DNA from: a virus | Taxonomy: Duplodnaviria; Caudoviricetes | Length of the DNA: 25,686 bases | Direction: 5' to 3' (one strand) | Virus record (IMG/VR): IMGVR_UViG_3300020043_004904 | Span: 1 to 25,686 of that record | In this document: positions 10,934-16,743 of the stretch, one piece after another | How the letters are laid out: every line of letters begins with the position of its first letter | Position numbering within the stretch: position 1 is the stretch's first letter | Notes under the pieces: generated by a model | Told to the model about the DNA's origin: nothing | The model's database searches: none | Seen by the model: only the letters and a program-made list of their open reading frames with translations | Translations under genes and position numbers: made by a program

Positions 10934-11518
10934 ATGTTGAAATCAGAACAGATCAACGAACTGAGTGCGGCGCTTGCCAAGGCTCAATCTGAGATCGAAA
11001 ACGCAAGCAAGACCAGCAGCAATCCTCACTTTAAATCCAAGTATGCCGACCTAGCCGAAATCCTGAACACGGTTCGCCCCGTGTTTAGCGCACACGGCTT
11101 AGCTATCGTGCAAATGCCGAGTTTTGAAAGCGGTATTGCTCATGTCGAAACCTTGTTGACTCACAGCAGTGGCCAATGGATCAGCAATGTGTGCAGCGCA
11201 CCTGTTGGCAAGCAAGACGCGCAAGGCGTTGGTAGCGCAATCACCTATCTGCGTCGTTATAGCTTGGCAGCGTTTGCAGGCGTGGCTCAAGAGGATGACG
11301 ATGGCAATAGCGCCGTAGGAAAACATGCGCCACAACAGCAGGCAGCAAAGCCACAACAACAACCAATGACCGCCGAAATCATGGAAAAGGCTGCGCAGTC
11401 GATCCGTGACGGCAAAGCAAACGTGCAGCGTATTGCTAAGGCCTACATCCTGAGCGACGAGCAGCGAGCGGCGCTGATCGCTATTGAAACCCAAGCACTT
11501 GCGGAGCAACAAGCATGA
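10934..11518 (+). CDS. ERF-family single-strand annealing recombinase
   Basis: [22 protein letters not shown] and [20 protein letters not shown] motifs. Confidence 0.92.
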
Positions 11519-12517: not shown

Positions 12518-13021
12518 ATGAACCTATACGACTACGGCGACGAACTCGCCGCCAAGATTGCCGCCGTCCAGCAGATGATCGAGGATGGCGAGGAAGTTGA
12601 GGGCAAAGCGGTGCAGGCCGCTTTGCGTGACATGGTAAGCGCCGAGGGCGATTTGCACGCCAAAGCTGCAAACGTGGCGCTGTATATCCGTGAGCTTAAG
12701 GCGCAGGCCGAAGCAGTCAAGGCCGAACAAGATCGGTTGGCAAAACGTCGAGCAAGCCTTGTGCGTCGGGCTGAATCGCTCACTGACTATCTGCTGGGCG
12801 CATTGCAACAACACGGCATTGATCAAGTTAAGACGCCGTTAGTGACGGTGTCGGTGCGGATCAATCCGTGGTCAGTTGAAGTGGCAGACCCAAAGGCATT
12901 GCCGCCTGAATATCTGACGGTTAAGGTTGAGCCGAACAAAAAGGCGCTGTTGGCTGCGCGTGAGTCGGTGCAGTTTGAGGGCGTGACATATCAAAAATCC
13001 ATCAGCTTACGCATCAGTTAA
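12518..13021 (+). CDS. Siphovirus Gp157-family protein
   Basis: KAANVALYIREL..KAEQDRLAKRR..LTDYL..VKTPLVTVSVRINPWSV..LPPEY..EPNKKAL pattern. Confidence 0.85.
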   Translation: MNLYDYGDELAAKIAAVQQMIEDGEEVEGKAVQAALRDMVSAEGDLHAKAANVALYIRELKAQAEAVKAEQDRLAKRRASLVRRAESLTDYLLGALQQHGIDQVKTPLVTVSVRINPWSVEVADPKALPPEYLTVKVEPNKKALLAARESVQFEGVTYQKSISLRIS

Positions 13022-13069
13022 TCAGTAAAACTGATTGGACGAATTGAGCGGTTTTTGACAATATCACTT

Positions 13070-13146
13070 GTGTGGCTAGGAGGCATCCGAAAGCGTGAAA
13101 CGTCTGGCACGTTGCCACACACTCCACTAGACGAAACCTGTAGACG
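13070..13146 (+). ncRNA. Second three-way-junction antisense-type RNA, forming the leader of the CRISPR array
   Basis: Closing stem GTGTGGC/GCCACAC; loop AAACGTCTGG pairs with CTAGACG (13127) and TAGACG (13141). Confidence 0.55.
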
Positions 13147-13148
13147 AG
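13117..13148 (+). repeat. Spacer-sized flanking direct repeat, upstream copy (preceded by CC)
   Basis: Contains CACTAGACGAAACCT (13125-13139), identical to 13425-13439; abuts repeat 1. Confidence 0.85.
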
Positions 13149-13416
13149 GTTCACCACCGTGTAGGTGGTTTAGAAGTGCTGTACTTGTCATTGATCATCG
13201 TTAAAGCTGTTCACCACCGTGTAGGTGGTTTAGAAGTATAACGCCTGCGTTTTGATCGTCCATCATGCGTTCACCACCGTGTAGGTGGTTTAGAAGACAA
13301 CGGGACACAAGCCGCGATAAGGGCAGGCGTTCACCACCGTGTAGGTGGTTTAGAAGTGAATAACGCCGGATCGCAGCCGATGCCAGATGTTCACCACCGT
13401 GTAGGTGGTTTAGAAA
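13149..13416 (+). CRISPR. Type I-F CRISPR mini-array without cas genes: 5 repeats, 4 spacers
   Basis: GTTCACCACCGTGTAGGTGGTTTAGAA(G/A), 28 nt, at 13149, 13209, 13269, 13329 and 13389; unique 32-nt spacers; CCACC-GTGTA-GGTGG hairpin and 8-nt TTTAGAAR tail match the Cas6f-type repeat layout. Confidence 0.97.
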
Positions 13417-13448
13417 ACACTCAACACTAGACGAAACCTTAGACGGGG
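13417..13448 (+). repeat. Spacer-sized flanking direct repeat, downstream copy
   Basis: Abuts repeat 5; related to 13117-13148; carries the SD-like GGGG of the next gene. Confidence 0.85.
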
Positions 13449-13453
13449 TTTGT

Positions 13454-13621
13454 ATGTTCAAGTTTTTACTGATCGCCTGCGTTGTGACAAAAGGCGGTAC
13501 ATATCAAGATTGTGCACCAGGCGCGATTTATCAAACACAAGCCGAATGCTATGCAAGCGCCGCAGTCGTTGAAGATGACGCGATGGCGGACGGGTTTTTT
13601 TGTGCGTGCTGTTTGTGTTGA
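13454..13621 (+). CDS. Small Cys-containing protein, DUF1482/YebW-like pattern (55 aa; not in ORF track)
   Basis: MFKFLLIACVVTKGGTYQDC...IYQTQAECYA: hydrophobic N-terminus and spaced cysteines; family call tentative. Confidence 0.55.
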   Translation: MFKFLLIACVVTKGGTYQDCAPGAIYQTQAECYASAAVVEDDAMADGFFCACCLC

Positions 13622-13630
13622 GGTGGAGTG

Positions 13631-14011
13631 ATGAGTCTACAAGGACAGCTCGCAATCGCGCAGCGCAAAGGGCAAAAGCATTTTACGTTTTGCTACAACG
13701 TGGCAGACATGGCGGATGCTAAAGACGTGCGAACCGCAATGCACGGAAATGACTTGGCTAAAAACGCATGGTTGTGTAACGGCTATTTTTGGTGGTCGGC
13801 GGTTATTACCGTGTTTAGCCCAAACGCTGATGGCACGGTGACGGAAGTCAAGGCGTACTGCCGCGATACGATGCGCCGCCGTCCGCACGACTTAACAAAA
13901 GACCTGCACAAGGCGATTGAGCGGCTACACAAAGAGCATCCTGATGCTGATATGTCAATCAGCACAGTATCGGTCACTTGCAGCGTGGTGTGCCCAAAAT
14001 GGAATTCTTGA
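13631..14011 (+). CDS. Hypothetical protein (126 aa)
   Basis: SD GAGGTGGAG; packed in the operon. Confidence 0.65.
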   Translation: MSLQGQLAIAQRKGQKHFTFCYNVADMADAKDVRTAMHGNDLAKNAWLCNGYFWWSAVITVFSPNADGTVTEVKAYCRDTMRRRPHDLTKDLHKAIERLHKEHPDADMSISTVSVTCSVVCPKWNS

Positions 14012-16225: not shown

Positions 16226-16251
16226 AACACTATGCTGGTCGTATTATGCAA

Positions 16252-16275
16252 AGCTCACTTCGGTGGGCTTTTTTT
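16252..16275 (+). terminator. Intrinsic terminator 1 of the late leader
   Basis: AGCTCAC-TTCG-GTGGGCT followed by a T-run. Confidence 0.8.
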
Positions 16276-16298
16276 GTTGCCCAGCAAAAGTTTAACCC

Positions 16299-16319
16299 AC
16301 CGTCGAAAGGCGGTTTTTT
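16299..16319 (+). terminator. Intrinsic terminator 2 of the late leader
   Basis: ACCGTC-GAAA-GGCGGT followed by a T-run. Confidence 0.7.
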
Positions 16320-16338
16320 ACATTTTGGGGTGAGCATT

Positions 16339-16743
16339 ATGGCGGAGGTCAAGCTAACACCAAAGCAAGATAATTTCTGCCGTCTTTACATTGAATTAGG
16401 TAATGCAAGCGAAGCGTATCGTCAGTCTTATGATGCTGAGGATATGAATGATTATACGGTTAATCGCAAGGCAAAGGAGTTATTGGATAACGGCAAGATT
16501 GCGGCAAGACTTAATCAAATCCGCAGCGAACACATGCGCCGCCATGATTTGACAGTGGGCGATTTGCTAAAAGAGCTTGAAGAAGCTCGTCAGGCCGCAT
16601 TAGGCGCAGAGAATCCGCAATCGTCGGCAGCGGTGGCCGCAACAATGGGCAAAGCCAAGATACTCGGACTAGACAAGCAGATTGTTGAGCAGACAATCAA
16701 CGGCAATCTAGCTCACACAATCACGGTCGTCTTTGATGACTAA
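16339..16743 (+). CDS. terS: Terminase small subunit
   Basis: KLTPKQDNFCRLYIELGNASEAYRQSY..AKELL..KIAARL; directly upstream of terL. Confidence 0.9.
   Translation: MAEVKLTPKQDNFCRLYIELGNASEAYRQSYDAEDMNDYTVNRKAKELLDNGKIAARLNQIRSEHMRRHDLTVGDLLKELEEARQAALGAENPQSSAAVAATMGKAKILGLDKQIVEQTINGNLAHTITVVFDD

Follow-up and report, generated by a model that had tools for sequence, protein, structure and literature searches.

The window, i.e. the whole stretch of DNA that was analysed, comprises 25,686 nt and represents the entire virus record. Features given by window coordinates lie on the + strand unless stated otherwise. A PHROGs scan of 43 ORFs annotated an endolysin, an O-like initiator, DnaB, Erf, SSB and a Gam-like gene, besides terminases, portal, scaffold, head and connector genes. 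Judged by gene order, from which the label is taken, the record is a partial P22-like phage. Neither cas genes nor an integrase or a transposase were annotated among the 43 ORFs of this partial contig. The closest terminase large subunit in genome_contigs showed 84% identity and is located in a MAG record titled Moraxellaceae bacterium; the other ten loci are mostly from Acinetobacter or Moraxella (58–62% identity). The phage's own terminase small subunit gene, terS (16246..16743, probable start 16339), is of the NASEAYRQSY type. Related large terminases are paired with small subunits of the NATQAAIRAG type (19/72 loci) or the NASEAYRQ type (6/72). The two types beside related large terminases (L017-L050 and L141-L146 versus the window) suggest a putative exchange of terS modules. 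An Erf-family single-strand annealing protein (PF04404, E 6e-29) is encoded at 10934..11518. A Gp157/Gam-like gene (12518..13021) lies immediately upstream of a CRISPR array, on the same strand.

The type I-F array extends from 13149 to 13416 and consists of five 28-nt repeats and four 32-nt spacers with a period of 60. The repeats start at 13149, 13209, 13269, 13329 and 13389; the first four end in G, the last in A. Rfam assigned them to CRISPR-DR4 on the + strand. One of the five, the last repeat (36.2 bits), passes the gathering score of 35, and the other four (32.8 bits) are just under it. The repeat hairpin had a z of -3.3. A 28-nt repeat of the CRISPR-DR4 type with a stem-loop, together with four unique, regularly spaced spacers of 32 nt, characterizes a type I-F array. 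An AT-rich leader was not found upstream of the array (0.47 AT), while the AT fraction was at least 0.63 upstream of 28 of 34 other viral I-F arrays. The promoter scan yielded no forward promoter and a single weak site on the reverse strand. Positions 13037-13068, upstream of a predicted stem-loop, differ from the relatives L208 and L209 and hold a perfect TTGACA hexamer, for which a good -10 partner is lacking. A transcript of the Gp157/Gam-like gene would run through the array in crRNA sense. Directly after the array, two small ORFs without PHROGs or Pfam family are located at 13454-14011; Cas6f cutting in the array would split them from the upstream transcript.

Spacer 3 (13297..13328, 32 nt) is located between the repeats at 13269-13296 and 13329-13356, and its sequence occurs once in the window. 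As stated in the initial annotation, it encodes NGTQAAIRAG in frame +2, with 10/10 residues exactly within these borders. Identity to this motif was at most 5/10 among 569 array spacers of the Moraxellaceae family and at most 6/10 among 5000 shuffles; the motif is therefore not due to chance. A back-translated motif pattern retrieved 75 IMG/VR loci, 74 with NGTQAAIRAG and one with NGTQAAISAG, and the motif context is common to them. The Pfam check was applied to L129 only, which encodes a Terminase_2 (PF03592, E 3e-38) adjoining a Terminase_3 large subunit. This locus has a GC content of 38%, reads DHNGTQ, carries CC on the 5′ side and differs from spacer 3 by four mismatches, all synonymous and in third codon positions. 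L071, with CA in the PAM position, also has four mismatches, and these two are the nearest motif loci. The 75 loci, the PF03592 assignment and the control spacers support well that spacer 3 derives from the terS of another phage or prophage, as had been suggested. It gives ten residues of the N-terminal motif of the terminase small subunit family PF03592; its source gene was not found. The DH codons and the CC postulated in front of the motif fit a real gene class, exemplified by L129, with CC in the PAM position of just 17/75 loci. The phage's own terS had rightly been described as not matching and is not a target: it has 22/32 DNA mismatches and AG in the PAM position. The database search, for which a terS match behind CC had been predicted, delivered one in L129 but nothing closer than four mismatches. 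The target phage of spacer 3 and its PAM are putative assignments derived from sequence. The terS match is real and, taken alone, ordinary.

No protospacer of spacer 3 with fewer than four mismatches was present in viral contigs, INPHARED, plasmids, metagenome contigs and 401 family genomes, and a 20-mer had 0 matches in viral contigs. Among 72 loci of terminase-large-subunit relatives, the closest site had at least 10 mismatches. INPHARED contained one 21-nt partial match in a Bacteroides phage, which was judged as chance. A 21-mer search in metagenome contigs retrieved one site, L137:410-434, with 25 nt exact. It was rejected as protospacer and attributed to chance: it is mismatched in the seed, has no CC and lies on the antisense strand of a gene that does not encode a terminase, in a contig of bacterial appearance. 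This exact match in a non-phage context shows which length chance spacer matches may reach in very large collections. Two matches of the degenerate motif in the 401 genomes, with 7 and 8 mismatches and no CC, were rejected as well. BLAST of the whole array gave no phage match, and the matches in plasmids were array-like only; in the 401 genomes, with two candidates scored per genome, repeats were matched and no full-spacer match occurred among the matches listed. Spacer 1 (13177..13208) and spacer 2 (13237..13268) had no match, including 0 collection matches for a 19-mer of spacer 1. Three matches to an 18-mer of spacer 4 (13357..13388) showed 9-11 mismatches over 32 nt and were rejected as chance. 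Compared with the window itself, spacers 1-4 gave no PAM-plus-seed run beyond 9 positions. A function as regulatory guides was rejected, as no PAM-plus-seed run was found for spacers 1-4 in four host loci, a comparison of low power with loci that are not from the true host.

The array is enclosed by two copies of a 32-nt phage segment. The left copy A (13117..13148) ends exactly at repeat 1, and the right copy A′ (13417..13448) starts directly after repeat 5 and continues into phage sequence. Thirty-two nt is the modal spacer length, observed for 540/569 family spacers. A agrees in 31/32 positions with the empty site of L208, and A′ in 31/32 with that of L209. The global alignment of A and A′ scored 24, while 20,000 random window pairs reached 17 at most. 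Several positions differ between the copies, and these vary within the phage population; A′ deviates from A at seed positions 5, 7 and 8. A 15-nt core (13125..13139, second copy 13425-13439) is identical in both, and the joint 13124->13425 skips 300 nt, with the 15 letters fitting on either side. This core is likely the crossover zone. The dinucleotide CC (13115..13116), the type I-F PAM, stands directly 5′ of A and is present also in the relatives with an empty site. CC is given as the I-F1 PAM in the accessible text of bioRxiv 2023.03.03.530964, and it preceded 13/13 spacer-protospacer pairs checked for three spacers of family arrays. Forty-eight viral loci with type I-F arrays were collected, and 34 distinct arrays had both flanks. 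A flank duplication was seen in none of these 34 other viral I-F arrays (maximum score 14), a survey in which 13 contig-edge arrays were unscored; host arrays bordering a provirus may be among the 34.

In L208 and L209 (IMG/VR; 88-91% identity over the main flank blocks), the segment is present once, after CC and without a repeat. Further alleles came from runs X1, X2, X6 and X8, which represent four studies and are wastewater or freshwater metagenomes on record; runs X17-X24, with a small share of words, were left out of the contig comparison. In contigs of X1 and X2, precisely 300 nt are missing at the core. Loose ends of X6 and X8 place the upstream flank directly before A′, which fits an empty site. 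In an X1 contig, the segment begins as A and ends as A′, within window-like flanks; in X6, it begins as A′ and has the extra G of A. The two main polymorphisms, in the seed bases and in an extra G after the core, occur in all four combinations among empty-site alleles. The filled allele was seen in the window contig alone, and none of the run-contig records listed bridges a junction between flank and repeat. Other loose ends of X1, at 13147-13238, show the window's repeat beside two other spacer-like sequences. They possibly belong to a host array, maybe also with spacer 1; the depth at these ends suggests, short of proof, that they come from one contig. X2 has a joint 13465->13268 with three letters between and a depth of 4.87, equal to that of the empty-site contig.

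The insertion site follows a conserved predicted stem-loop (window 13069-13130; L208 4497-4563; equivalent in L209). It is overlapped by an 11-codon ORF with GTG start, which is kept in all three alleles with synonymous changes. The predicted outer stem pairs CC with the first bases of A. This modelled pairing may be the reason for the fixed PAM while seed bases 5-8 vary. The stem-loop had no Rfam match and folded no better than shuffles; it presumably resembles phage regulatory leaders of the c4/icd type.

The exact repeat had 0 matches in the viral collection, from which the window's own or very near records were possibly left out, and 0 matches in genome_contigs, with the same reservation for very near records. 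None of 151 relatives of the MAG carries it exactly, and four have it within three mismatches. In G047, a G-ending repeat two bases away adjoins csy1-4, cas1 and cas2-3. The MAG with the closest terminase (84%) has G-ending repeats, and in one family array G and A endings occur side by side, as in the window's array. An interpretation of the final repeat G as a PAM remnant was rejected, as there are host arrays with G at the end of every repeat and one with both G and A. A donor array containing spacers 1-4 in order was not found among the matches listed from genome_contigs, the 151 relatives and the 401 genomes. Two spacers from the same site were observed in 5 of 9907 pairs in host arrays.

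The flanking duplication and the relatives with an empty site, both overlooked in the initial annotation, point to the capture of a block of host spacers. The array was probably taken from a host CRISPR array by recombination of a host anti-phage spacer with its protospacer, which carried along four neighbouring spacers. The host, likely a member of the Moraxellaceae with a Csy system, would have held a spacer acquired from the CC-flanked site at 13117. A phage allele with seed mismatches would have survived and crossed with that spacer, likely in the 15-nt core, and the Erf annealing protein possibly aided this step. With its gene 1.6 kb upstream, Erf is the candidate recombinase and a plausible helper. 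The phage would then have been released by crossing over between repeats or at another spacer from the same site; integration of an excised five-unit circle is a further route. The released phage would carry four neighbouring host spacers and five repeats, with the 32-nt site doubled. Repeat-to-repeat crossover, five-unit circle and double crossover at two same-site spacers yield an identical structure and are indistinguishable here. Both junctions lie in a spacer-length segment behind the PAM of an empty site, as in a recombination product. A crossover in the core predicts two parents: the window minus 300 nt, as represented by X1, and an allele that starts as A′ and has the extra G of A, as represented by X6. 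Against capture, both A and A′ have a counterpart in an intact natural allele (L208 and L209, respectively), a finding compatible with the route via two spacers and also with an assembly chimera. Under capture, spacers 1-4 are host-derived. Spacer 3 is then likely a hitchhiking host record of an earlier terS-bearing phage and not a weapon chosen by the phage. The carrier is likely safe from its own array after capture, because no PAM-plus-seed run exceeds 9 positions and A′ differs from A in the seed. Transcripts of the upstream operon, processed by Cas6f of the host, would yield four normal crRNAs. These could cut a co-infecting phage of the DHNGTQ type or tie up Csy complexes, and a use of the array against a competitor is possible as a secondary effect. 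A bolder version, held tentatively, sees a phage array caught at birth, with a host spacer as landing pad and four ready-made guides, one of them against the terminase of a rival. It includes the equally tentative idea that repeat 5 and A′ form a fifth, repeat-led guide, matching array-less siblings (31/32, CC PAM) and not the carrier.

The initial annotation had proposed that the array targets the packaging gene of a competitor. The origin of spacer 3 in the terS of another phage stands; an attack on a competitor was not shown. A mini-array maintained by the phage, with spacer 3 selected to guide the Cascade of the host to the terS of a rival phage or prophage, is quite unlikely. It would agree with a terS-derived spacer that spares the own terS, with the existence of a CC-flanked DHNGTQ class (L129) and with intact repeats in the sense of the upstream genes, and virus-borne mini-arrays against rival viruses are known from the accessible part of PMC6858448. 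No target was found, however: none of the 72 loci of terminase relatives came within 10 mismatches. The array has neither leader nor forward promoter and was not seen in the relatives examined, and the flanking duplication accounts for the spacer content without selection. A main function as RNA decoy, whatever the mode of acquisition, is very improbable. Non-self crRNAs, together with an RNA from upstream that stops in the first hairpin and lacks a 5′ handle, would titrate Cas6f and Cas7f and thereby weaken the immunity of the host. According to the portions of PMC10651486 available, RacrIF1 and a non-targeting crRNA both reduced type I-F interference, and the inhibitory part was the product upstream of the Cas6f cut. 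The lack of spacers with a PAM-plus-seed run above 9 positions in the window is consistent with such a role, but the locus has five repeats instead of a solitary one, the promoter scan gave none dedicated to the array, and relatives with the array were not seen.

The flanks bear on two further explanations. In an assembly chimera, the phage path would have been left at a shared 32-mer, five units of a host array crossed and the phage re-entered at a second spacer from the same site. This is unlikely. Points in its favour are that both A and A′ correspond to intact alleles found in nature, that host arrays do contain pairs of spacers from one site, that no second record of the filled form was observed, and that the loose ends of X1 put the repeat beside other spacers as in a host array. 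By reasoning, a chimera presupposes that the final k was no larger than about 33 and that the longer path was preferred to the direct phage path. Moreover, the natural allele of X1 equals the window minus 300 nt at the core, as predicted by the crossover model. An integrase, a transposase or Cas1 could likewise have inserted the array, leaving an ordinary target-site duplication as direct repeat around the insert, yet this is barely credible: the duplicated segment has spacer length and begins right after CC, the copies differ at positions polymorphic in the phage population, and no integrase or transposase occurs among the 43 ORFs of the partial contig. Capture from a host array remains the probable explanation, and its footprint is the notable part of the locus, not the terS spacer.

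Mini-arrays with one or two spacers targeting related viruses have been described, as far as the accessible text of the sources goes (PMC6858448, Medvedeva 2019; review PMC11656645). For leaderless phage arrays, recombination with host arrays has been suggested in the available parts of PMC6858448 and PMC7099407. The window's array resembles virus-borne mini-arrays in its host-type repeats, the lack of cas genes, the lack of a leader and at least one spacer from another virus. Unlike these, it has four spacers. Spacer 3 matches no close relative found (at least 10 mismatches, 72 loci), and spacers 1, 2 and 4 are unmatched. Only A′, read as a repeat-led guide, matches a relative (L209, 31/32, CC). 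Further differences are the duplication of spacer length that follows a PAM and encloses the array, and the empty site in relatives. By its sequence features, the locus would work like a virus-borne type I-F array, without the mini-array feature of one to two spacers; a competitive role is putative.

Recombination between spacers and phages was reportedly obtained in experiments by Varble in 2019. In the accessible text of bioRxiv 2020.10.09.333658, PMC10608574 and PMC8616872, such recombination is cited from Varble 2019 and Watson 2018. The junctions of the window likewise lie in sequence common to a putative spacer and the phage protospacer. As far as these citing texts describe it, CRISPR loci are transduced, whereas here the phage genome seems to keep a five-unit piece, in a natural sample. 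The accessible text of PMC8047081 gave no further information about capture. Phage AP1.1 (bioRxiv 10.1101/2020.10.09.333658, available text) is comparable, as excision from an array can bring spacer-repeat units into a phage genome. That process is integrase-driven and the attP matches the repeat; in the window, the homology is between spacer and protospacer, and the empty site has no repeat. RacrIF1, according to the accessible part of PMC10651486, shares the phage-carried type I-F hairpin with predicted Cas6f cleavage. It is a solitary repeat with its own promoter, in contrast to the full array with five repeats and canonical spacers. A description of a natural footprint like this one was not found in the open literature, a scope that excludes subscription papers such as Faure 2019 and Varble 2019.

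If real, the locus records both junctions of an array capture and would show the origin of a virus-borne array as it occurs in nature. The signature to look for in viral databases would then be an array enclosed by a PAM and a duplication of spacer length behind it. The spacers of a phage array are not necessarily chosen by the phage; they may be host memory. Five of the viral I-F arrays (L212, L217, L223, L233 and L243) comprise 4-10 repeats; AT-rich sequence lies upstream of them, and most have a tail resembling a terminator. This self-contained layout differs from that of the window's array. Three degenerate type I-F-like repeats with irregular spacing are located at L205:8240-8380 in G007, a close relative of the MAG, and may represent a decayed or regulatory mini-array.
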